In this document: one piece after another, positions 28,747 to 59,667 of the stretch
Numbering within the stretch: position 1 is the stretch's first letter
How the letters are laid out: each line of letters begins with the position of its first letter
Source of the DNA: a phage
DNA: 64,000 bases
Sequence record: NC_129898.1
Strand: one strand, 5' to 3'
The notes under the pieces: model-generated
What the model was told of the DNA's origin: nothing
Database searches by the model: none
Seen by the model: only the letters and a program-made list of their open reading frames with translations
Position numbers and translations under genes: made by a program

Positions 28747-29325
28747 ATGAGTTCACGCAAAGATGACCGCGAAAAGATTGCAAAACGTTATCAGAATGAA
28801 GAACAGATGGAGAAAACTTTCAAGTGGAAGCCAGGTTTCCAGCGTAATCATTCTAACGCTCGTGATCGTAAGCATCCGGATAAGTGGCTAACACCGCCAA
28901 ATGATGGCATGCAGGTTGGTGATGAGAAGGAGCTATCGCCTGGAAAAGATGGCAACTACATTCGCACTAAGGACGCTGGTCCAAAGGATGACAGCTATCT
29001 TGTAGATAAGGTTCTTGATGGTATTGATGTAGATGTTGACACCACACGGAACTTTTTTCTTGGGTGGTATCGCACAGGTTTTTTCGACATCAAGGCCATT
29101 CGTCGTGTTTGTGATATTAAAAAGTCTGCATATGATGACGACTCGTTACATCGCACCCTGAGGCAATATTCAGAAAGATATGGTCATCCGGTTATCACTC
29201 TTGACGATGTTGACGAAGTGATGTATCATGCAGAGGTTGTTGCAGGCAGATTTGGTGATGCATATCTTGATATCCTTTCTGCAAACGATGAGGTAATGTT
29301 GAATAAGATTTACTACGAACGTTGA
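28747..29325 (+). CDS. hypothetical protein
   Basis: 192-aa ORF with GAGGAGG RBS. Confidence 0.55.
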   Translation: MSSRKDDREKIAKRYQNEEQMEKTFKWKPGFQRNHSNARDRKHPDKWLTPPNDGMQVGDEKELSPGKDGNYIRTKDAGPKDDSYLVDKVLDGIDVDVDTTRNFFLGWYRTGFFDIKAIRRVCDIKKSAYDDDSLHRTLRQYSERYGHPVITLDDVDEVMYHAEVVAGRFGDAYLDILSANDEVMLNKIYYER

Positions 29326-30622: not shown

Positions 30623-30697
30623 GCCCTGTTAGCTTAGTGGATAAAGCAGCGGCCTTCTAAGCCGTTGACACTGGTTCGAGTCCAGTACGGGGTGCCA
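30623..30697 (+). tRNA. tRNA-Arg (anticodon TCT)
   Basis: Hand-folded cloverleaf: acceptor GCCCTGT/ACGGGGT, anticodon loop CTTCTAA, T-loop GGTTCGAGTCC, encoded CCA. Confidence 0.75.
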
Positions 30698-30827
30698 AGT
30701 TCTTTTTAATGTAGCTTACTTTAGCAGAGTAAATCTTCGGCAAGTGGCGGTAACCACTTTACCGATACCTCATAGTTAGTGGTGAGAACACTAGCTATTT
30801 TAAAAAGAATTTAAATATTAGTATTTA

Positions 30828-30915
30828 GGTGAGTTAATTCCGTAGGGGTAGCGGGGCAGACTGTAAATCTGTTATCATTGCGATTCGGGTGGTTCGACTC
30901 CATCACTCACCACCA
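30828..30915 (+). tRNA. tRNA-Tyr (anticodon GTA)
   Basis: Acceptor GGTGAGT/ACTCACC, anticodon arm CAGACTGTAAATCTG as in E. coli tRNA-Tyr, long variable arm, encoded CCA. Confidence 0.8.
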
Positions 30916-31029
30916 AATTTATATTTTTAAATGCATAAATCATACAGATAATGGCATTGATATTTATCGTCGTTTATACTAGTCACTAACTGCTCGAAAA
31001 TCAGTGTCATTATCAGTATTGTTTATAAA

Positions 31030-31120
31030 AGAGGGTAGGGAGCAATGGTGCTCAAGCGGTCTTGAAAACCGTCCCGTTGAGGATGACTCGATGATGGTTC
31101 GATTCCATTATCCTCTGCCA
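31030..31120 (+). tRNA. tRNA-Ser (anticodon TGA)
   Basis: Acceptor AGAGGGT/ATCCTCT, anticodon loop CTTGAAA, 20-nt variable arm, T-loop GGTTCGATTCC, encoded CCA. Confidence 0.75.
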
Positions 31121-31218
31121 TATTGTTGACCTTGTAATTAAGCGAAAGCCGGAAGCAGAACCGGATTATCAAATGTTACAGTCGTCATCGCCGACTAGCC
31201 ACATGGTCAACATATTGC

Positions 31219-31315
31219 GCTAGGTAAGCCCTTTGGCAAGGGCGAGGATTTTTAATCCTGAAAATAGACGAGGTAGTCGTTGAATACATAGATGGTTCGA
31301 TTCCATCACCTAGCA
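31219..31315 (+). tRNA. tRNA-Lys-like (anticodon TTT) with atypically long variable region
   Basis: Acceptor GCTAGGT/ACCTAGC and anticodon arm GAGGA-TTTTTAA-TCCTG are canonical, but about 30 nt separate the anticodon stem from the T arm and CCA is not fully encoded. Confidence 0.4.
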
Positions 31316-31321
31316 CCTTTT

Positions 31322-31397
31322 GCTGATGTAGCACAATTGGCAGTGCAATTGATTTGTAATCAATAGGTTGCAGGTTCAAGTCCTGCCATCAGCACCA
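31322..31397 (+). tRNA. tRNA-Thr (anticodon TGT)
   Basis: Acceptor GCTGATG/CATCAGC, anticodon arm ATTGA-TTTGTAA-TCAAT, T-loop GGTTCAAGTCC, encoded CCA. Confidence 0.85.
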
Positions 31398-31398
31398 T

Positions 31399-31473
31399 GG
31401 CCCTGTAGCTGGAAGGTTCAAGCAAGCGACTCATAATCGCCAGACGGTGGTTCAATTCCACCCAGGGCCACCA
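31399..31473 (+). tRNA. tRNA-Met or tRNA-Ile2 (anticodon CAT)
   Basis: Acceptor GGCCCTG/CAGGGCC, anticodon loop CTCATAA, T-loop GGTTCAATTCC, encoded CCA. Confidence 0.75.
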
Positions 31474-31484
31474 AATTATAAATA

Positions 31485-31561
31485 CTCCGCGTAGCTCAGC
31501 TTGGTAGAGCGCCTGATTTGGGATCAGGAGGTCGAGTGTTCGAATCACTCCGTGGAGACCA
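31485..31561 (+). tRNA. tRNA-Pro (anticodon TGG)
   Basis: Acceptor CTCCGCG/CGTGGAG, anticodon arm CCTGA-TTTGGGA-TCAGG, T-loop GTGTTCGAATCAC, encoded CCA. Confidence 0.8.
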
Positions 31562-41956: not shown

Positions 41957-43333
41957 ATGCCATATTTAGATAAAGTGGTAGATGTTACAGTTAACCTCGG
42001 AACCCAGCCTATTGACACTGTAGGTTTCGAAACTCCGCTGTTCATCGCTATCCACAACAACTTCACTGAGCGAGCTCGCGTATATGCGGAGCTGGATCAG
42101 ATGGTGGAAGACGGTTTCGCACAAGGCTCTGCAGCTTATGAGTTTGCAGCAAAAGCTTTCGGCGGTGTATTCCCTCCGCAGTATGTTATGATCGGCAGAC
42201 AGGCAAAAGAAAAAACCACTGTAGATTTTAAAGGTATTGCTGCCGCAGCTGATACTGATGTCGTAATGACTATTGCAAAAGGTAGCTACAATACTTCTCT
42301 GATAGTGCCTATCTCTGGTGGAACAGGTGCAACTCAGATTGCAGAGTCAATGAAGACTAAAATTGAAGCAGATGATAGCTTGAACGATATCACTGTAGCG
42401 GCTGAAGACGGTGTTCTCACCATCACGGGTGACTGTACTGTTGGTTATCATACTGGTAACTATACAATCAAAAATATCGCCAATGCTGAAAAACCTTCTA
42501 CAGTAGTTGATAAGATCAATGCTGAGCGTGACAATTGGTACTTCCTGTGCCATGAAGACCACACCGACATTGAAGCATGTGCTAAGTGGGCTCAGGCTAA
42601 CTACAAGCTGCATGTCTACTCTACTGCAGAAGATGTGACTGGTAAAGATAATAACATCGCCACCAAACTAATGGCTGCACAATATGACAGTGTTGGCATG
42701 TACGATCCTCGTGCAGATAAGGACTTCCCGGAGGGTGGTATCATAGGTGCTATGGCATCCAACGATCCGTCCTATGGTGACAGTTTGCACTTAAAACAGA
42801 TGCCGGGTGTGATTGCACCATCTTTGACTTTAACTCAGCGTATGGCGATTTGGGAAAACCACGTTAACTTCTATAGAATGATTAACGGTGTCGGCGCTTT
42901 CTGGGAAGGTAAGTGTGCTTCAGGTCAGTATGCAGACGCTATTCGTTTTGCACACTGGATCAAGTTCAGATCTGAAGAATCCATGTTCGGGTACATGCAT
43001 CGCCGCTCCAATATGGGTTTAAGCATGAAGATGTCTGATGATGATCTTCCGGTTATCAAGTCTGTTCTGATGAACAACCCGATCAATACTGGCATTAAGA
43101 ATGGTGCGATCCTGACAGGTTTTGACGAAGACAACAATGTGTTCTACGACCCGATCATCACAGTTCCTAAACGTGCAGAAATCCCAACCAATCAGTTGGC
43201 TGCTCGTGTTCTGGAAGGTGTGAAAGTAGAACTGGTGTATAACAACGCCCTGCACTTCGTTCGTATCCGGATCAACGTCCTCCTGGACAAAGTTGGTTCT
43301 AAATCCACCAATGCTGTTGCAATGACTGAATAA
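41957..43333 (+). CDS. major tail protein (sheath-like or large tube protein)
   Basis: 458-aa ORF with high-expression codon use, upstream of a 157-aa tail protein and the chaperone/tape-measure genes. Confidence 0.5.
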   Translation: MPYLDKVVDVTVNLGTQPIDTVGFETPLFIAIHNNFTERARVYAELDQMVEDGFAQGSAAYEFAAKAFGGVFPPQYVMIGRQAKEKTTVDFKGIAAAADTDVVMTIAKGSYNTSLIVPISGGTGATQIAESMKTKIEADDSLNDITVAAEDGVLTITGDCTVGYHTGNYTIKNIANAEKPSTVVDKINAERDNWYFLCHEDHTDIEACAKWAQANYKLHVYSTAEDVTGKDNNIATKLMAAQYDSVGMYDPRADKDFPEGGIIGAMASNDPSYGDSLHLKQMPGVIAPSLTLTQRMAIWENHVNFYRMINGVGAFWEGKCASGQYADAIRFAHWIKFRSEESMFGYMHRRSNMGLSMKMSDDDLPVIKSVLMNNPINTGIKNGAILTGFDEDNNVFYDPIITVPKRAEIPTNQLAARVLEGVKVELVYNNALHFVRIRINVLLDKVGSKSTNAVAMTE

Positions 43334-43343
43334 GGAAGACTAG

Positions 43344-43817
43344 ATGGAAACTCAAATTTTAACTCCTTATGCATATGACCCTAAAAAGGTCAAACTGTAT
43401 CTGATGCAGCAGCGTGTCACTGGCTTCGCTGCTGACACCAAGATCGTTGTTTCAAGAAACGAAGACAACATCTACCCTCACGTCGGTGTGGATGGTGAAA
43501 TGTCTGCAGCTCTGTCTCGTAACCAATCTGGTGTTATGACTGTGTCCTTGCAGAACACTTCTGTATGGAACGCTTACCTTTCTGACTGGCAGAAACAGGC
43601 ATCTATTACTGGTCTGGTATTCTTCCCGGTTCTGCTGGAAGGTAGCCAAGGTCCTGGTATTTCTACAATCGGTTGGATCCAGAAACAGCCTGACCTGACT
43701 TATGGAACCGAAGTAGGTCAACTGGACTGGGATATCGGTATTCTGGATGCATGGCTCAACCGTGACAACATCACTGGTGCTCTCACTGGCCTCGCAGGTC
43801 TTGCAGGTATTATCTAA
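43344..43817 (+). CDS. tail tube-like protein
   Basis: 157-aa ORF between the major tail gene and the chaperone pair; followed by a terminator. Confidence 0.45.
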   Translation: METQILTPYAYDPKKVKLYLMQQRVTGFAADTKIVVSRNEDNIYPHVGVDGEMSAALSRNQSGVMTVSLQNTSVWNAYLSDWQKQASITGLVFFPVLLEGSQGPGISTIGWIQKQPDLTYGTEVGQLDWDIGILDAWLNRDNITGALTGLAGLAGII

Positions 43818-43835
43818 GGGCACACTTTAGCATAG

Positions 43836-43866
43836 GCCTCACCTTCGGGTGGGGCTTTTTGCTTTT
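43836..43866 (+). terminator. rho-independent terminator
   Basis: GCCTCACC-ttcg-GGTGGGGC hairpin followed by a T-run. Confidence 0.6.
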
Positions 43867-43907: not shown

Positions 43908-43936
43908 TTGACAATGCACCGTAATCATGGTAAAAT
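43908..43936 (+). promoter_or_regulatory. sigma70 promoter (TTGACA-17-TAAAAT with TG extension)
   Basis: Consensus -35, 17-nt spacer, TGGTAAAAT. Confidence 0.55.
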
Positions 43937-43979: not shown

Positions 43980-44453
43980 ATGGCTATAAACTTTAGACCT
44001 ACAACAGAGATTGATTTAGCAGGGCACAACTTTGTGATCACCCACTGGGGTCCGATGAAAGCAATGAAAAACATGCCTAAAATCGGTAAGATTGTGGCTG
44101 TCCCGCTAGGTGCTATCGGTGGATCTATTCTCTCAGGCGGTCAGAATATGGCAGAGGTCCTTCCTACAGCCCTGGCTTACCTGTTCCAAGAACTTGATGA
44201 TAACTCTATTGAAGAGTTATTTAAAATCTTGTTCGAAGATATTACCGTGGATGGTGTGGATAAGCTTAACCCTGATGTTGTGTTTGCAGGGCATCTGCTG
44301 GAGATGATTAAGCTGGCAGGTAAGGTTCTGGAGGTTAACTACGGCTGTTTTTTCACACAAGACGGTTTAGGAAGCCTTCTGGAGATGTTACAGCAGATGG
44401 GTATGATTCAGCAGGTGAACAATCTGGATCAGACTCCGGAAGAGCAGGAATAA
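43980..44453 (+). CDS. tail assembly chaperone (G-like)
   Basis: 157-aa acidic protein directly upstream of the tape measure gene; contains slippery TTTTTTC at 44347-44353. Confidence 0.6.
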   Translation: MAINFRPTTEIDLAGHNFVITHWGPMKAMKNMPKIGKIVAVPLGAIGGSILSGGQNMAEVLPTALAYLFQELDDNSIEELFKILFEDITVDGVDKLNPDVVFAGHLLEMIKLAGKVLEVNYGCFFTQDGLGSLLEMLQQMGMIQQVNNLDQTPEEQE

Positions 44454-44713
44454 GCAAGGTTGTTGTGAGGGCCAGTGAGTGGGCAGCCAAGAACAGTTCA
44501 CTCAACTGGTTCGACTTTCTTTGGTGCAGGGTGCTCAAGAATTTCAAAGGGGAAAATTTTGAATCGCTAAATCTTGCAGATATGGCGTATTTCCTGAAGC
44601 TCTGTGAGTATCTTGATATCGAAGAATTCCTAGATACCGTCCAAAACAGGGAAATGGAGCGGGAGCAGAAGGCTGCCGCAGCTGCTGCGAAAGCTAAACG
44701 CAGGAGAGGATAA
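43980..44713 (+). CDS. tail assembly chaperone frameshift product (GT-like)
   Basis: The -1 frame is open from 44312 to 44713 and overlaps the G-like ORF; slippery heptamer in the overlap. Confidence 0.45.
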
Positions 44714-44718
44714 TCTAA

Positions 44719-44756
44719 GGGCCGGATTCCTTTTCTGGGATCTGGCCCTTTTTATT
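44719..44756 (+). terminator. terminator-like hairpin
   Basis: GGGCCGGAT..ATCTGGCCC stem followed by TTTTTATT. Confidence 0.45.
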
Positions 44757-44767
44757 ATGAGGAAAGC

Positions 44768-47107
44768 ATGGCTACAAACAAAATAGTTGCCACAACAGTC
44801 AACAAGATTGGCTTTGAGATAGAGAACTCCTCCTACAAAAAAGCTGTAGAGAAAATTCGCAGTATTGGGAGGGAGTTCAGGAAACTGGGCGAGGATTTTA
44901 ACTCAGCCAACCCAATGAGTAGATGGCAGGCAGTGGCTGTTAAAACCCAGCAAACAATGCAGCGGGTTGCCAGACAGCAATCTCAGGCAAATGCTAAACT
45001 TCACAGGGAGAGCGTAGCACAAGCCAAGAAAGAGGCTGCAGTAAGGGCTGCAATAGAACGTAGGGAAAACGCAAGACGTAAACAGGCTGTAGGTAATCTT
45101 ACCGCTAAAAATCCAGAAATGGCCAGGATGCGTAAGTTCTACCAGCAGCAAGCTAAAGAGGCCAAAAAGGCTGCCAAATCTACACCAGTGTCTTACGGCG
45201 GTTATAAGGCACCAAAGGCAAGAGTTTTGGCTAATGCCAAATCTTTCAAGTATATCCCAGGTAACCCTAATATGGGTGGTGTGGCTTCCGACCCTAACCT
45301 TGTGAAAGCTCAGACAGCCGCTATGAATCGTTATCATAGACAGCTAAGAAGAGACAGTAAAGCTGGTATGGATAATAAGCTTATGTCTGATCGTGAGGCA
45401 AGGAGAACCCACCTCTACAACTCTGCGATAAGACTTTCTGCCAAGTATGGGGCCGGATTCCGTGGAAGCTTGGCAGGATACTCAGAGTTAGAGTCCAGGT
45501 TTGCTCGCGGGGAGATGAAAAAGTCAACCTTTAACGCCCACCTGTCAGCTCTGCAGTCTGGATTTAAAAGCGCCACCAGCCAAACGCTTACACTAGGTGA
45601 TGCCATGAGGGACTTACGTAGGTCTGTTATTAATGCAACAGCTGCGTATACTGCTTTCTCTGGATTTACTGCTGTGAACAGATCTGGTCACATGATGGAG
45701 GGGGCAAGTGCTGCTCTTACTGCTGTTACTGGAGATCCAAACAAAGCCAACAGTGAGGTTGCGTTTGTCCAGCAAGAGGCTATGCGTCTTGGTTTTGATC
45801 TCAAATCTGGTCTTCAAGGTTACGCCCAGATGGCGGTAAACGCCAAAAACCAGATGACAAATCAAGAGGTGCATGAGCTATTCTCTGCATACTCACAGTA
45901 TGCTGCTGCTTACGGTGCCGATGAGGTAAAATACCAGCGTGGCATCATGGCAATCCAGCAAATGCTCGGTAAAGGACAGGTAATGTCCGAAGAACTGAAG
46001 CAACAACTTGCTGAAGCATTGCCTGGTGCATACGAACCTTTTATCAAAGCCACCAAAGAGGCTTTTGGTCTTTCTGAACTATCCATGGATCAGTTCATGG
46101 ACATGATGAAGAAAGGTGAGGTTAAAACAGCCAAGATCATGAAGTATGTGGCTAAGTACATGAACGAGGCATCTGCAGCTGGTTATGAAAGAATGCAGAA
46201 GTCTAACGTACTGGCAGAAAACAGGCTGAAAACCTTCATCGAACTATCTCGTCAGAAGCTGTTCACCCGTTGGGCTGATGAATTAACAGAGTTCTATTAT
46301 ACACTGATTCGCACAGGTGAGACTTTGCAATTTGTGTGGGATGCCTCTGGTGATTTTGTTAGCGGGTTTGTGAGAGGCCTCAACTGGGTAGTTGGTGAAC
46401 TAAACAATACCATAGTCAAGATCCGCATGTTTTTCCTTGAATGGGGGATTAAATGGGGATTCATAACAGCTAAGACGAAGGAATATTCTGAAGAGCTTAA
46501 TGACACCTTTAGCTATGCTAAATGGGCAGGGTTTGCTGCTGCCATCATGCTGGTAGTGAACGCCCTGACAAAAGGTTTTGTCATGGCATCTATGCTTGTA
46601 AAAACCTTCAAATTCCTTAGTTCTATAAGAGGCGCAGCTGGAGCAGCAGGTGCAGGTGCAGCTACCACAGAAGGATCTGGTGGTGGTGCGGCAGGAAAAG
46701 GGGGAGGTGGCCTCAAGACACCTGGCGGTAAAGTTGGCCTGCTTGGGAAGCTTGGTATTATCGGTACAATATTAAGTGCCGGGGAGTTATTTAATGACCG
46801 TTTCAACCCGCTGAGTGAGAGAAATCAGCAACTGGATACTATCAGCGATATGATTCGCAAAGATATCATATCGGGAGGTAACGGGTTTGTTGATCCTTTG
46901 GACACCTTACCGGGAGGGACTCTTCCGTTGCCGGGTGGTCCTGGTTTTGCTTCTCAATTAAGAACTATGGAAATGCTACCTTTAGAGATCAGTGATGGCA
47001 AAATCACGATTTCAATAGATGAGGGGGAGTTTAGCAAAATACTTGATGCAAAACTTGAGTGGGAGAATAACAAAGATATTAACTTTATGTCAACAGATCT
47101 TTGGTAA
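44768..47107 (+). CDS. tape measure protein
   Basis: 779 aa, helix-rich N-terminal two thirds, hydrophobic segments and Gly-rich stretch near the C-terminus; follows the chaperone pair. Confidence 0.75.
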   Translation: MATNKIVATTVNKIGFEIENSSYKKAVEKIRSIGREFRKLGEDFNSANPMSRWQAVAVKTQQTMQRVARQQSQANAKLHRESVAQAKKEAAVRAAIERRENARRKQAVGNLTAKNPEMARMRKFYQQQAKEAKKAAKSTPVSYGGYKAPKARVLANAKSFKYIPGNPNMGGVASDPNLVKAQTAAMNRYHRQLRRDSKAGMDNKLMSDREARRTHLYNSAIRLSAKYGAGFRGSLAGYSELESRFARGEMKKSTFNAHLSALQSGFKSATSQTLTLGDAMRDLRRSVINATAAYTAFSGFTAVNRSGHMMEGASAALTAVTGDPNKANSEVAFVQQEAMRLGFDLKSGLQGYAQMAVNAKNQMTNQEVHELFSAYSQYAAAYGADEVKYQRGIMAIQQMLGKGQVMSEELKQQLAEALPGAYEPFIKATKEAFGLSELSMDQFMDMMKKGEVKTAKIMKYVAKYMNEASAAGYERMQKSNVLAENRLKTFIELSRQKLFTRWADELTEFYYTLIRTGETLQFVWDASGDFVSGFVRGLNWVVGELNNTIVKIRMFFLEWGIKWGFITAKTKEYSEELNDTFSYAKWAGFAAAIMLVVNALTKGFVMASMLVKTFKFLSSIRGAAGAAGAGAATTEGSGGGAAGKGGGGLKTPGGKVGLLGKLGIIGTILSAGELFNDRFNPLSERNQQLDTISDMIRKDIISGGNGFVDPLDTLPGGTLPLPGGPGFASQLRTMEMLPLEISDGKITISIDEGEFSKILDAKLEWENNKDINFMSTDLW

Positions 47108-54207: not shown

Positions 54208-57200
54208 ATGGCTGATATTAAAGTTGTCAGAATTGAATCTCTTCCTGCCACTACCGCAGTGGCAGAGGATGATTACCTGGTTGTTCAACAACCAGACCTG
54301 ACCCGTCGTGTAAAAATTGGCGATGTTGTCCATATAGATGGGACTGTTTCTCATGTAATCTCCTTTAAGGAAGGTGGTAAGTTAAACGGCCCAATGGATT
54401 TTGCCTACTTCGAAGAGGAAGACCTCTACCTGCGTTGGAAAGGCGAATTTCCGCACACTGTTCCTGCACTGTCTTCACCGTACGCCGATGGTGGGATTAC
54501 CGATGCTGCATGGATGGTATATACAGACCCGTCCTTAAGAGAGGAGCTGGAGTCTACCATTGGCGCATCTATGATCATGACAGCCGAGGGGCAGTCTGTA
54601 CAGGATGTAATGGATGTTACTGTTCAGACAGCCAACGATGCCAAAGCACTTGCACAGCGGGTAGATTTTGGTACGGTGCATACTGTAGGCGATGTCATTC
54701 ACCTTGTCAACTTTGTTGGTCCTGCAGTTATTGAAGAGGGAAGAACTACTAACTACCCTTCTGAAGCAGCTGGTGAAAAATTTCTGAACGGTGTGGTATC
54801 TCGTCGTGATACTACAACTGTTGATGGTATTTTCCGTGGCGCTACCTCCGGAGCCATGTATACCATTGCAGTAACCAACGGTGTAGCAACAACAAAAAGA
54901 ATAGCACTTCGTGATGAATTTAAACGCCTGGAGGCAAACAATCCAACAAGAACAGTTATCCGTGCTGGAGATGATTTAAACACGGCAGGGTACTTGCAGC
55001 TTGATGCAACAGGCCGTTGGGGTATGTGGAACCAGCAAACAGCCTCGTGGCAACCTCTTGCTATAGAGCAAGGCGGTACAGGAGCCAGAGATGCCGCTGG
55101 AGTCCGTATCAATATCGGTGCTTTCTATAAGCAACGTGCAGCCCTTGAGGCAAATTTCAATATCAATAACTTAACTGGTAATCAGGACGGCATATACTAC
55201 CAGCCAATGACTGCTAATGCAACTGAGGAAAATGGTTATCCTGCAGGTTCTGGTGCTGGTCACTTGATTGTTTGGCAGAACAATGCTAACGGTGGCACAG
55301 GCTGTCGTCAGGAATACTATCCATTCTCTAACGTGGATGTTTGGTATTTGAGAACCTATCAGGCCAACACAAACCAATGGACTGCATGGCAGCCGATGGT
55401 CAGACCTCGGAATGATGACACCTTCAGATCTCATATCGGCCTTGGTAAAAACAACTCACCTGCTTTCGGGCACCTTTACTTAGCTCAGTACTCAGGAGAT
55501 GTTAAATCTGCCTCAGGTATTCTCCATGGAGATAAATATAACACTGATGGTGTTCTTGAGCATGGTTATAGGATCTACTCAGAGGTAAGAAACGACAATA
55601 AGGCTTGGTTAACAATCCACCTGCACAAAGGTGCAAAAGGATCTGAAACTCATCGGTATTTGGGTTTCCGCGAAGATGGTGTATTAGACTGTCCTAAATA
55701 CATGCAGGTTGGGGATCTTACTGGTCAGCTGACAAACTGGGGACTTGGAGAATGGATTCGTAGTTCAGGGGCAGAAAGAGGGTTCTGGGGTTCCAAGAAA
55801 GCCGCTAAGATGGTCGTCTGGGATGGCGGTATGGATGAATCTGGTAATGGTACTCTAGAATGGGGTGTTTATAACAACCGGAAGGCCAAGTGGGAACCTT
55901 TACCTCAAGCCGCAGGTGGCACTGGGGCTACAACCCTGGCAGATGCTCAGAATCTGTTCAAAGTTCCTATAGCTGCGGGTGTCAAAGATTTCTTAACACT
56001 GCCAAGAACTGCAGGGATGGAAGATGGGAAATACTACCCAATCATCGTTAGAACAGATCCGTATTATGCTCCAGCAACTGGCACTGATATTACCCTAGTC
56101 ACCAGATCGTCATCTGGCGGTGACCCTATGAACTGCGCCACCTTACAGTGTCACTATAGAACTGGCGGTTGGACAGATAGAGGGGACTCTTTCTACGGGG
56201 TAGTGAATTTCTATCAAAATGAAAAAGCACTTCTTGGGATGGTTGCTCCAACAAGGGGTAAACAAGAGTATGTTGCTTTCTATGCAGAGGCTCGTGCTTT
56301 CCCTGTCAGCATATACGCAAGCAGAAATGTTGTCGAAGTGTTTACCAGAGAGCAAGATTATCAAGTCGGCTCTGTAACAAACAATCAGGACGGTGTTAAG
56401 TTCGTTGCACCTCTCCAGTCAGCAGATTTAAATCTGGCTGTTCTCGGAGATAACAATACCAACACCAGACCTATTGTTGACTTCAAAGGTACCTCTGGGT
56501 TCTACACTGGCGGCGGCACACAGTGGCACTATATAGGCACTGCTGAACGCTATGCGGTGATGAGCAAAATGAACATGCCTAAAGTCGAACTATGGGCTGA
56601 CGGTATTGACTATTTGTGCTACGGCAGTCCTAGAAAGGCGTTATTCTCTAACGCAGGATTCCAGTGTGCATCAGATGGGACAGATGATCTTACTAACGGT
56701 ACGTTTACCTCTAAATGTGGTAATGGTGCTGGCCTCCAAGGTCAAGCAGAGTTCAGGTCTACTCCAGAAGCTGGTCAAGTTATTGTTCGTGATGTTGTAG
56801 GTTCCGCTCACAGATTCTACAATTTCAACAAAGACGGTACTTTCTCGGCCCCTGGTGGTTTTGTATGCCACACAGGTGCAGACTGGAACAACCAGTTCGG
56901 AAATAATAATCCGTCCAAAATACTGGCTGGCAACGTCAACGGGCCTGAAGGTTCAATGGTTGTTGGCGGGTTGTCTGTGGCGTTTTCTGGAAACTATGCT
57001 TTCCAGATGGCAGGTCGTTTAGATCAGCTGTACACCCGTTCCATAGAGCAGGGTAACCACAGAGCGTGGAACAAAGTTATTCAGCACCGTGGTCAAGGGT
57101 TGGGGACTAGCGACCTTAACGATTACAAAGCGGATCGCGAAGGTATCTACCATCAAGAGGCAAATGCCAACGCCACAGCGGAAAGACACTACCCACCAGG

Positions 57201-58647
57201 ACAGCAGATGGCTGGTACGCTGATCGTGCTTAGAAACTCTGCCAACGAGGGTACAGGGTGTGTCCAGATATATAAAATGTATCTTGGAGGAACGTGGGAA
57301 AGGTACTATAATAACACTGGCAGCGGAATGAACTGGAGCCCTTGGAAGAGAACGAGCTTCCCAGAAAGTACAACTGCCCCAGTCATGCCTGACCTGTGGT
57401 TGCCTTTAACCTCTAATCTAAAACCTGTACTAGGTGAAGGTGAGATGGTGTTCTCCAGACCTTCTACAGCAACATATTTCACTAAGCGCGGTGTCATGGC
57501 TGTTGCACAGGCAAACCAACCACGTTTCGAAAGAGATGGTCTGCTCATTGAAGGTCAAAGGACAAATCTGATGCTTAATAGTGAGGACCCGAGCAAGTGG
57601 GGGGCAAGTCAACAGATCACTGTTGGCAACACTGTAACAAACACTAACGGAACAAAAGGTGCAAGATTTACAGTAAACACCATATCCGGTGTAGAAACAA
57701 CGGCGTTAAACCTGGCTACAGTTCCAGCCACTCGGGGTGCAGATGTGACAGGTGATGAGAAATTTTGTACTGGATCTATTATTGCAAGAGGTGGTAAAGC
57801 TCACCAGAGACTGCGTGTAAGATTCGACATGTATAACGGATCCACCACAGTATTCCAGGGTGATGCCTATGTTAACCTGTCAACACTTGAAGTTAAAACA
57901 ACAGGTGGTGCAGCTGGGAGAATTAAAGTAAAAGCTGAGAGATGGCAAACAGCCGGACCTGCTTGGATAAGGGTTGTTGCTACGTTTGAGGCAGCGGCCT
58001 CTGACATGAATATTGGGTGCCAGTTCCAGATTTCACCACCGGAGGGTTCTCAACATGCCGTAGGGGATTGGATTGACGTCGCAATACCTCAGTTTGAGTT
58101 AGGATCTTGTGAGTCCTCGTTTATCCCTACAGGGTCTTCACCAGTGACTAGGGCAGCAGACCTTTGTAAATTCCCAATGACTGATAATTTAGCACCTAGA
58201 CCGTTCACCATCGCCGCTACGGTGGATGCCAACTGGAGAGGTTGGGGAAAAGCTCCTAACGCAGCTCCTAGGGTTATTGATACAGAGCTCCATCAATCCG
58301 GTGCTGCATTTATCATGGGTTTTGGCTCTTCAGCAAATATTGCAGATGATGGTTACCCATATTGCGATATTGGCGGTTCAAACAGACGTGTCTATGAGAT
58401 GGCTAAAACACGTAAATTGAAGATTGGGTTCAGGATAAAAGATGACGGTAAAACCTGCTCTTTTGCTAACGGATTGGTAAGTACGGAAACGCAATCTTCT
58501 TGGGAATTCCTGGCAGGAGGCGCTTTCATCCGTATCGGTGGGCAAACCGCAACTGGTGAAAGACATTTGTTTGGTCATATCAAGGATATAAGGGTTTGGA
58601 ACTCTGCACTGACCGACACCCAGCTTATGATGGAGAGTGTTGAATAA
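54208..58647 (+). CDS. large tail fibre protein
   Basis: 1479 aa; N-terminal anchor domain shared with 50905-51573; two paralogous internal modules. Confidence 0.7.
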   Translation: MADIKVVRIESLPATTAVAEDDYLVVQQPDLTRRVKIGDVVHIDGTVSHVISFKEGGKLNGPMDFAYFEEEDLYLRWKGEFPHTVPALSSPYADGGITDAAWMVYTDPSLREELESTIGASMIMTAEGQSVQDVMDVTVQTANDAKALAQRVDFGTVHTVGDVIHLVNFVGPAVIEEGRTTNYPSEAAGEKFLNGVVSRRDTTTVDGIFRGATSGAMYTIAVTNGVATTKRIALRDEFKRLEANNPTRTVIRAGDDLNTAGYLQLDATGRWGMWNQQTASWQPLAIEQGGTGARDAAGVRINIGAFYKQRAALEANFNINNLTGNQDGIYYQPMTANATEENGYPAGSGAGHLIVWQNNANGGTGCRQEYYPFSNVDVWYLRTYQANTNQWTAWQPMVRPRNDDTFRSHIGLGKNNSPAFGHLYLAQYSGDVKSASGILHGDKYNTDGVLEHGYRIYSEVRNDNKAWLTIHLHKGAKGSETHRYLGFREDGVLDCPKYMQVGDLTGQLTNWGLGEWIRSSGAERGFWGSKKAAKMVVWDGGMDESGNGTLEWGVYNNRKAKWEPLPQAAGGTGATTLADAQNLFKVPIAAGVKDFLTLPRTAGMEDGKYYPIIVRTDPYYAPATGTDITLVTRSSSGGDPMNCATLQCHYRTGGWTDRGDSFYGVVNFYQNEKALLGMVAPTRGKQEYVAFYAEARAFPVSIYASRNVVEVFTREQDYQVGSVTNNQDGVKFVAPLQSADLNLAVLGDNNTNTRPIVDFKGTSGFYTGGGTQWHYIGTAERYAVMSKMNMPKVELWADGIDYLCYGSPRKALFSNAGFQCASDGTDDLTNGTFTSKCGNGAGLQGQAEFRSTPEAGQVIVRDVVGSAHRFYNFNKDGTFSAPGGFVCHTGADWNNQFGNNNPSKILAGNVNGPEGSMVVGGLSVAFSGNYAFQMAGRLDQLYTRSIEQGNHRAWNKVIQHRGQGLGTSDLNDYKADREGIYHQEANANATAERHYPPGQQMAGTLIVLRNSANEGTGCVQIYKMYLGGTWERYYNNTGSGMNWSPWKRTSFPESTTAPVMPDLWLPLTSNLKPVLGEGEMVFSRPSTATYFTKRGVMAVAQANQPRFERDGLLIEGQRTNLMLNSEDPSKWGASQQITVGNTVTNTNGTKGARFTVNTISGVETTALNLATVPATRGADVTGDEKFCTGSIIARGGKAHQRLRVRFDMYNGSTTVFQGDAYVNLSTLEVKTTGGAAGRIKVKAERWQTAGPAWIRVVATFEAAASDMNIGCQFQISPPEGSQHAVGDWIDVAIPQFELGSCESSFIPTGSSPVTRAADLCKFPMTDNLAPRPFTIAATVDANWRGWGKAPNAAPRVIDTELHQSGAAFIMGFGSSANIADDGYPYCDIGGSNRRVYEMAKTRKLKIGFRIKDDGKTCSFANGLVSTETQSSWEFLAGGAFIRIGGQTATGERHLFGHIKDIRVWNSALTDTQLMMESVE

Positions 58648-59076: not shown

Positions 59077-59667
59077 ATGTTTTTATGGGAAAGGCCTAGA
59101 TACCTTCCAGACATTAGACTGGAGCTACTGGCAGACATCGTTACATTTAAAAGCCCGTTTACAGGTAAGACGCAAAAAGTCACCTATGCCACGCCTAACT
59201 GGAAGGGCACTTTGACGGTTTCCAATATCAGCGAGTCTCAGTTGTTGGAGCTTAAAAGTTTTGTTGATCAGGTTTACAAAGATGGAAATATTTTTCTTAT
59301 CAAGGCTTATGGGCATTCAGTTACCTCCAACGAGCCAATCGCTCTTGGACCAACCGGTAACGACGATTTTTTGAAGACGGTTGGTTGGGAGCCTAACAGG
59401 GATATAGCCAGAGCTGGGGATAAAATATCTGTCAATGATGAGTTGAAAGTGGTGACAGCCTCAGTACGAAGTGATGGTGTTGGGGCCGCTGTTATAAACA
59501 TATCTCCAAGACTTAGGAAACCTATTGCCGCAGGGGATACCATGAAGATAATAACTCAATCTCCGAAGGGTAGATTTCATATCAGGGATCTTTATAAAAT
59601 TAAGCAAAAGGTTGATGCTATGCAGAAAGGTGACAATATAGTTATCAACTTCTTTGAGGATTTCTAA
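59077..59667 (+). CDS. minor tail protein
   Basis: 196-aa ORF with GGGAGG RBS. Confidence 0.45.
   Translation: MFLWERPRYLPDIRLELLADIVTFKSPFTGKTQKVTYATPNWKGTLTVSNISESQLLELKSFVDQVYKDGNIFLIKAYGHSVTSNEPIALGPTGNDDFLKTVGWEPNRDIARAGDKISVNDELKVVTASVRSDGVGAAVINISPRLRKPIAAGDTMKIITQSPKGRFHIRDLYKIKQKVDAMQKGDNIVINFFEDF

Follow-up and report, generated by a model that had tools for sequence, protein, structure and literature searches.

A very probable programmed −1 frameshift site in an rV5-like Vequintavirus tail assembly chaperone gene

Results

Tail genes and transcription signals around the chaperone gene

The window, by which we mean the whole stretch of 64,000 nucleotides that was analysed (NC_129898.1), carries a series of tail genes on its plus strand, in the order sheath, tube, tail assembly chaperone (TAC), an open reading frame (ORF) in the −1 frame, and tape measure gene. 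The tail sheath gene (41957-43333) was recognised by phrog_205 (tail sheath, E 7e-118) and Pfam DUF3383, and the following gene (43344-43817), for a tail tube or virion structural protein, by PF11681 (KPP10_Orf10) and phrog_280 (E 2e-41). The ORF at 43980-44453, read in the zero frame throughout, encodes a product of 157 aa and 17.3 kDa. It matched PF21822 (Phage_TAC_15) with 84.5 bits (E 1.1e-23), for a cut-off of 22 bits, and phrog_3840 with E 6e-69; by these family matches it is identified as the tail assembly chaperone, designated G or TAC-N below. The tape measure protein gene (44768-47107; 779 aa) matched PF20155 (TMP_3) and, with 1124 bits, phrog_5255.

The source of the window is an rV5-like myophage of E. 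coli (Vequintavirus). In a nucleotide search with 900 bases around the slip site described below, Escherichia phage FV3 was 99.4% identical, and 121 phage records matched the same bases, nearly all of them rV5-like Vequintavirus. About 18-23 records labelled 'Campylobacter phage' (MG0656xx, host C. jejuni) agree at 97-99% identity with E. coli Vequintavirus over each of the two regions searched; these records are probably mislabelled or contaminant assemblies.

Two terminator-like hairpins, each with a T run, bracket the chaperone gene and the −1-frame ORF on the plus strand. One lies directly 3′ of the tube gene (43834-43857), the other, of 14 pairs, between the stop of the −1 frame and the start of the tape measure gene (44717-44750). 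The Murica record has terminators annotated at both places. On the same strand, 5′ of the chaperone gene, a candidate sigma-70 promoter is found at 43908-43936 (TTGACA, 17 nt, TAAAAT, extended TG), which agrees with the consensus at 11 of 12 positions and is a consensus match only. Because of the two bracketing hairpins and this near-consensus upstream site, the arrangement suggests that the chaperone and the T segment may form a transcription unit of their own, with attenuated read-through into the tape measure gene.

Candidate slip site and predicted fusion product

Relative to the chaperone ORF, the −1 frame is stopped at 44309-44311, 44321-44323 and 44336-44338. The last of these, a TAA on the plus strand, leaves the frame open from 44339 to the TAA at 44711-44713. 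The initial annotation had it open from 44312 through 44713; the end is confirmed, and the start moves to 44339. The overlap with the 3′ end of the chaperone ORF, which had also been noticed, measures 115 nt (44339-44453). Three codons past the opening of the −1 frame, inside its open part, lies the slippery heptamer T_TTT_TTC. It had been placed at 44347-44353, which reads GTTTTTT, and its real position is 44348-44354 (plus strand). There, the zero-frame codons TGT (44346), TTT (44349) and TTC (44352), for Cys123, Phe124 and Phe125, put it in the X_XXY_YYZ register, as claimed. No second X_XXY_YYZ heptamer occurs anywhere in the 157 codons of the chaperone ORF, nor was another slip site of this form found in the G/T overlap.

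The predicted fusion, GT or TAC-NC (43980-44713, plus strand), would be read in the zero frame over 43980-44354 and then in the −1 frame over 44354-44710. Its computed length is 125 + 119 = 244 aa, for a mass of 27.1 kDa, and replaces the earlier figure of about 205 aa. The −1-frame segment, or T part (44354-44713, plus strand; 119 codons and a stop), passes the chaperone stop by 86 aa. Within it, a Gly/Ser-rich linker precedes a conserved domain. The segment matched phrog_10409, 'unknown function', with E 2e-51; its last 82 codons (44465-44713) are present in databases as a separate hypothetical protein. No Pfam match to the T part was obtained by sequence, and when relatives of solved structure were searched for by sequence, the best hit to G was not significant (E 0.44) and the T part had no hit at all. 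The tryptic junction peptide predicted to be specific to GT is VLEVNYGCFFHTR, and the predicted G-specific C-terminal peptide is VLEVNYGCFFTQDGLGSLLEMLQQMGMIQQVNNLDQTPEEQE. The +1 frame was considered as an alternative and rejected, being closed, with only 7 aa beyond the G stop.

About 0.15 in-register heptamers are expected by chance per 38-codon overlap in one genome, and an in-register heptamer from a single genome alone is weak evidence. When crude ORFs of at least 100 aa were scanned over the window, 68 in-register heptamers were counted. Only the one at 44348-44354 combines a plausible gene with an extended −1 reading, here of 119 codons. For most of the others the −1 reading is 0-37 codons long, and nearly all end inside their own ORF; the exceptions are on minus-strand ORFs, two of them (127 and 80 codons) antisense to the large gene 54208-58647. 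T_TTT_TTC or T_TTT_TTG also occurs in register, within putative genes, at 29079 (plus strand, ORF 28747-29325), 12768 (minus strand, ORF 13211-12228) and 59367 (plus strand, ORF 59077-59667). At these three places the −1 frames stop after 9, 16 and 7 codons, respectively, well within the ORFs, so that nothing points to their being used for programmed shifts.

Conservation of the site and of the extension

A tblastn search with the 244-aa fusion returned 490 phage records, 355 of them at 80% query coverage or more, and in those 355 the match typically consisted of two pieces in different frames. Representatives were fetched from GenBank for Seunavirus, Henunavirus, Certrevirus, unclassified Vequintavirinae, and Phapecoctavirus and Justusliebigvirus (both Stephanstirmvirinae), and further ones for the unclassified Klebsiella phage KP2025, Aeromonas Plateaulakevirus and Rheinheimera Barbavirus. 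Their TACs are 28-55% identical to the window chaperone. Apart from the Barbavirus, all of the GenBank representatives (11 of 11) have T_TTT_TTC in register inside the overlap, and behind it the −1 frame extends for 86-98 aa.

In the Rheinheimera Barbavirus, G_GGA_AAG stands four codons downstream instead of T_TTT_TTC, the architecture is the same, and the extension is 74 aa. Selection for slippage predicts just such a swap of heptamer with the architecture kept, and the slip function thus appears to be retained in Barbavirus in spite of the replaced heptamer. In Rheinheimera phage Barba18A, G_GGA_AAG is at 1524-1530 of the fetched segment, and an HNH endonuclease gene of opposite orientation is inserted ahead of the tape measure gene, after the T ORF (1826-2464 of the segment).

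IMG/VR was scanned with a peptide seed derived from the chaperone alignment, [VIH][NY]Y[GA][CP]FF[TGK]. This seed enriches for Phe-Phe but leaves free the three synonymous choices on which the heptamer depends, namely T at the Cys/Pro wobble position and, for the two Phe codons, TTT and then TTC. In all 36 confirmed loci (36/36), both heptamer and −1 extension were present. As for the length of the run in the slip context, six Ts were seen 44 times, four of these T6-pattern matches being due to chance, and seven Ts were not seen at all; the run length is fixed at six.

The DNA pattern GTN-AAY-TAY-GGN-YS-TTTTTTC also matched IMG/VR contigs, mostly of about 4-60 kb, that have a different T domain. 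These contigs carry a chaperone-sized zero-frame ORF and a −1 extension of 30-70 aa with the motif ...W(R/M)LVL...L.ELE..WS.(D/E)D..., so that the slip site, as a nucleotide-level element, seems to be common to other, possibly smaller, phage genomes.

The same T_TTT_TTC was found in Felixounavirus Alf5, in the same register and within a homologous N-F-G-S-F-F. The window TAC is homologous to the 'tape measure chaperone' of the Felixounavirus Escherichia phage CL1 (OK040806.1) over residues 15-137 (tblastn E 7e-5, 29.6% identity), a weak match in a syntenic locus. CL1 has seven Ts at the homologous site (1530-1536 of the fetched segment), and its G and T are one continuous ORF of 213 aa, the one annotated 'tape measure chaperone'. 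The close Felixounavirus relatives listed (more than 96% identity) match CL1 over 641, not 642, bases. The seventh T may be a homopolymer sequencing error; otherwise it is a natural variant that makes only the long form.

Dual coding and the start of the T frame

In a codon alignment of 23 representatives with less than 90% nucleotide identity, synonymous-codon identity was 0.40-0.45 over codons 1-115, 1.00 at codons 123, 124 and 125, and 0.60-0.64 from the slip site to the stop. This pattern is the signature that a recoding signal followed by a dual-coding region would be expected to leave.

No column with a conserved start codon for the T frame was present in an alignment of 13 T parts. The first ATG, GTG or TTG comes after the conserved KNSSLxW(F/Y)D motif in 5 of the 13 genomes, and within it in another 3. 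In the Erwinia, Klebsiella K54_rec4, Salmonella SSBI34, Pectobacterium and Rheinheimera phages, none of these codons precedes the conserved N-terminal part of the T domain. From the heptamer to the position about 37 codons further on (44465 in the window), the −1 frame encodes a Gly/Ser-rich linker and is open in every genome. With no conserved start and a linker open everywhere, frameshifting must be the general route to the T domain. In the window genome itself, a GTG at 44465 lies 12 nt after the G stop, with an AAGG (44456-44459) 5 nt upstream, and judging from this context it could permit independent or coupled initiation of an 82-aa product.

Stimulatory elements, efficiency and tRNA supply

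Downstream of the heptamer, the minimum free energy fold of 44355-44454 gave z = −1.05, and its only long stem begins some 20 nt past the site. RNAalifold, run on 11 diverged sequences, found 0 conserved pairs. Neither a stem-loop nor a pseudoknot conserved 3′ of the site is supported by these folds. In tail chaperone frameshifts, a stimulatory RNA element (3′ structure or 5′ SD) is frequent without being required. Upstream, a Shine-Dalgarno (SD)-like GGAGG at 44330-44334 (plus strand), 13 nt from the heptamer, is a possible 5′ stimulator. At this position most relatives have GGAGG, GGAGA, GAGGTG or AGGTG, and others GAAGA, GAAGT or GAACA.

In E. coli dnaX, A_AAA_AAG followed by a strong 3′ stem-loop causes about 50% of ribosomes to shift. 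The window site resembles dnaX in its proposed −1 tandem slip and in the possible SD-like stimulator 13 nt upstream. It differs in two respects: folding revealed no 3′ structure, and the SD-like motif is not kept by all relatives. The window GGAGG recalls the 5′ SD stimulator of dnaX (PMC5009743). Among U-rich heptamers, U_UUU_UUA and U_UUU_UUU rank well below A_AAA_AAG in E. coli (PMC5009743); among the papers searched, none gave an efficiency for U_UUU_UUC in this host. Because U-rich heptamers are weak shifters in E. coli, and in view of the two differences from dnaX, the frameshift efficiency is probably low, of only a few percent. This would be consistent with lambda, in which a G:GT ratio of about 30:1 is needed (PMC5009743).

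Several tRNA genes were found in the window, none of them for Phe, so that, unless the rest of the phage genome supplies a tRNA-Phe gene, slippage would have to rely on the tRNA-Phe of the host. In the tRNA cluster (30623-31561), ARAGORN reports a 99-nt 'tRNA-???' at 31219-31317, with a four-base anticodon (atcc), which Rfam scores as tRNA with 37.5 bits. By eye, its anticodon loop could read UUU, and its extra arm is about 30 nt long; among GenBank relatives it is annotated as tRNA-Lys in a few and is unannotated in most. An Rfam tRNA at 30828-30912 was missed by ARAGORN, and the ARAGORN tRNA-Ser at 31030-31120 is absent from the Rfam list.

Annotation of the locus in existing records

No frameshift is annotated in any of the seven Vequintavirus records examined, RefSeq entries included; the FV3, slur16, MiataMamis, VB-EcoM-WM and Murica records are all without it. 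In these seven records, 44465-44713 is given as an unrelated 'hypothetical protein', split in two, or omitted, and the six other Vequintavirinae and four Stephanstirmvirinae-type records examined are annotated likewise. In MiataMamis (PP925834.1), the T segment appears as two tiny hypothetical proteins (2076-2171 and 2183-2314 of the fetched segment). The −1 frame is intact there, and the split is a gene-calling artefact, not a real interruption. In PHROGs, the T segment is classed under the 'unknown function' families phrog_10409, 8811 and 16039.

A search for literature on frameshifting in Vequintavirus or Vequintavirinae returned papers on frameshift mutations in host genes or on T4-like phages, and one useful paper, on Pseudomonas phage Adele (PMC12846349). 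No paper or GenBank record stating a frameshift for Vequintavirus itself was found.

Discussion

The initial annotation had proposed a G/GT arrangement upstream of a tape measure gene, and this is borne out by the family of the TAC, the gene order, the conservation of slip site and extension, the suppression of synonymous change, and the absence of a conserved T start. We conclude that the Vequintavirus tail assembly chaperone gene very probably uses programmed −1 ribosomal frameshifting of the kind known from lambda G/GT.

Most ribosomes would translate 43980-44453 into the 157-aa chaperone. We infer that slippage of a minority would take place at U_UUU_UUC (44348-44354), when the P site is occupied by UUU and the A site by UUC. 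In E. coli, UUU and UUC are both read by tRNA-Phe, of anticodon GAA. Both Phe-tRNAs would re-pair one base back, on UUU UUU, and reading would resume at CAC (44354) in the −1 frame, to continue up to 44710. The resulting product of 244 aa would be made of chaperone residues 1-125, the Gly/Ser-rich linker and, at the C-terminus, a conserved domain some 80 aa long. If lambda gpG and gpGT are taken as the model, the tape measure protein (779 aa) would be coated by G and GT, the T domain would bring in the tail tube protein, product of 43344-43817, and neither G nor GT would be found in the finished virion; the contacts of G with the tape measure and of T with the tube are carried over from lambda (PMC5009743).

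The same stretch could be explained by two separate genes with no recoding, the 82-aa ORF 44465-44713 being started at its own GTG through a weak SD sequence or by termination coupling, and the heptamer being merely the codons of a conserved Cys/Pro-Phe-Phe motif. The AAGG in front of this GTG and its location 12 nt behind the G stop would suit such a gene, GenBank records annotate it in this way, with even a ribosome-binding site marked in Murica, and PHROGs holds a family of its own, phrog_10409, for the segment. However, a second gene does not account for a start codon that is not conserved and annotated starts that are inconsistent or missing, for a −1 frame open in every genome over the 37 or so codons between the heptamer and 44465, for the invariance of the three synonymous heptamer positions against a baseline of about 0.43, or for Barbavirus, in which another canonical heptamer was swapped in. 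We therefore regard two independent genes as quite unlikely. That a non-functional heptamer simply happens to lie beside a fortuitously open frame would fit the chance expectation calculated above for one genome. It conflicts with the conservation of slip site, extension and T-domain protein sequence across several phage subfamilies and families, with the synonymous signal, and with the fact that, of the 68 heptamers of the window, no other belongs to a plausible gene and is followed by a −1 reading that extends far beyond the stop of its ORF. Given the conservation and the synonymous data, a chance origin is effectively refuted and out of the question.

The GT fusion could also arise if RNA polymerase added one U on the six Ts in some of the mRNAs. 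Such transcriptional slippage deserves attention in that the site is a homopolymer, an inserted U yields the same protein, and the seven Ts of CL1, unless they are a sequencing error, indicate that the long form is tolerated when encoded in the DNA. Yet bacterial cases occur on runs of about nine A or T (PMC5009743), compared to which six is short. The exact X_XXY_YYZ register, which is irrelevant to a polymerase, is kept in every lineage, and the G_GGA_AAG of Barbavirus is not a homopolymer. Since the known runs are of about nine and the strict codon register points to the ribosome, we consider transcriptional slippage as the source of GT very unlikely.

A ribosomal frameshift remains our reading, and the site may exceed an ordinary G/GT slip through some non-standard or dual mechanism, an idea that we hold to be unlikely as a whole. 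For example, transcriptional slippage might contribute a share, or G and GT might be joined by a third product, a free T of 82 aa initiated at GTG 44465, the ratio of the three being set by the flanking promoter and terminators and by the internal GGAGG. What leaves room for it is that the N-Y-G-x-F-F / T_TTT_TTC element is frozen at the nucleotide level, with a run fixed at six Ts followed by C, and that the signal is common to a TAC superfamily of large myophages spanning Vequintavirinae, Stephanstirmvirinae, Ounavirinae and Plateaulakevirus, and is present as well on contigs with a different T domain.

Frameshifting in the tail chaperone genes of long-tailed dsDNA phages, with lambda gpG/gpGT as the model, is documented (Levin 1993; Xu, Hendrix and Duda 2004; reviewed in PMC5009743). 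As in lambda, two overlapping ORFs are found directly upstream of the tape measure gene, and no strong RNA stimulator is evident. Unlike lambda, which slips at G_GGA_AAG, the heptamer is T_TTT_TTC, the TAC belongs to a different Pfam family (PF21822), and the phage studied here is a 136-kb contractile-tailed myophage. A further case is phage P2, for which Christie et al., in 2002, are said to have described an E/E+E′ tail chaperone frameshift with slippage at TTTTTTG. P2 reportedly shares with the window phage a contractile tail, a −1 shift on a run of six Ts, and a chaperone gene upstream of the tape measure gene; its protein family is reportedly unrelated, and the last base of its heptamer is G rather than C.

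The closest documented case is that of the Felix O1-like phages. G-TTTTTT-C at 44347-44354, with a −1 frame that runs on to 44713, shortly ahead of the tape measure gene, is an arrangement of the Felix O1/Pakpunavirus type, and the window shares with the Felix O1 group the motif N-F/Y-G-x-F-F, the heptamer T_TTT_TTC, its register and the gene order. It differs from the group in that Felix O1-like genomes are smaller (about 88 kb), with a T stop that abuts the tape measure start and no terminator between the two. The homologous frameshift is given as a joined CDS in the record of Mooglevirus Mordin, and is mentioned in the Moogle genome paper (PMC4319497). The Adele paper (2025) reported a conserved −1 frameshift at an invariant GTTTTT in Vandenendeviridae and Andersonviridae, and described Vequintavirinae as structurally related to those groups (PMC12846349). 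As in the Pakpunavirus and other Vandenendeviridae loci of that paper, an invariant G and T run lies near the 3′ end of TAC-N, followed by a −1 frame uninterrupted in all alleles, and, as in Adele, the downstream 'hypothetical protein' would be the C-terminal part of TAC-NC (PMC12846349). The likeness to Adele and Pakpunavirus is by published description, the loci of the paper being from Vandenendeviridae and Andersonviridae, not Vequintavirinae.

The homologous site was thus already annotated or described in Mooglevirus, Andersonviridae and Vandenendeviridae, and its Vequintavirus member is new and unannotated. The site is real and deeply conserved, yet an ordinary feature of long-tailed phages, and teaches nothing new on how frameshifting works. 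Recognising the 244-aa GT product corrects the records and assigns a function to one 'hypothetical' gene, in a group of phages that is widely used for E. coli O157 biocontrol and for phage therapy. The identical heptamer at homologous codons links the tail modules of rV5-like, phAPEC8-like and Felix O1-like phages and, from the literature, of PAK_P1-like phages.
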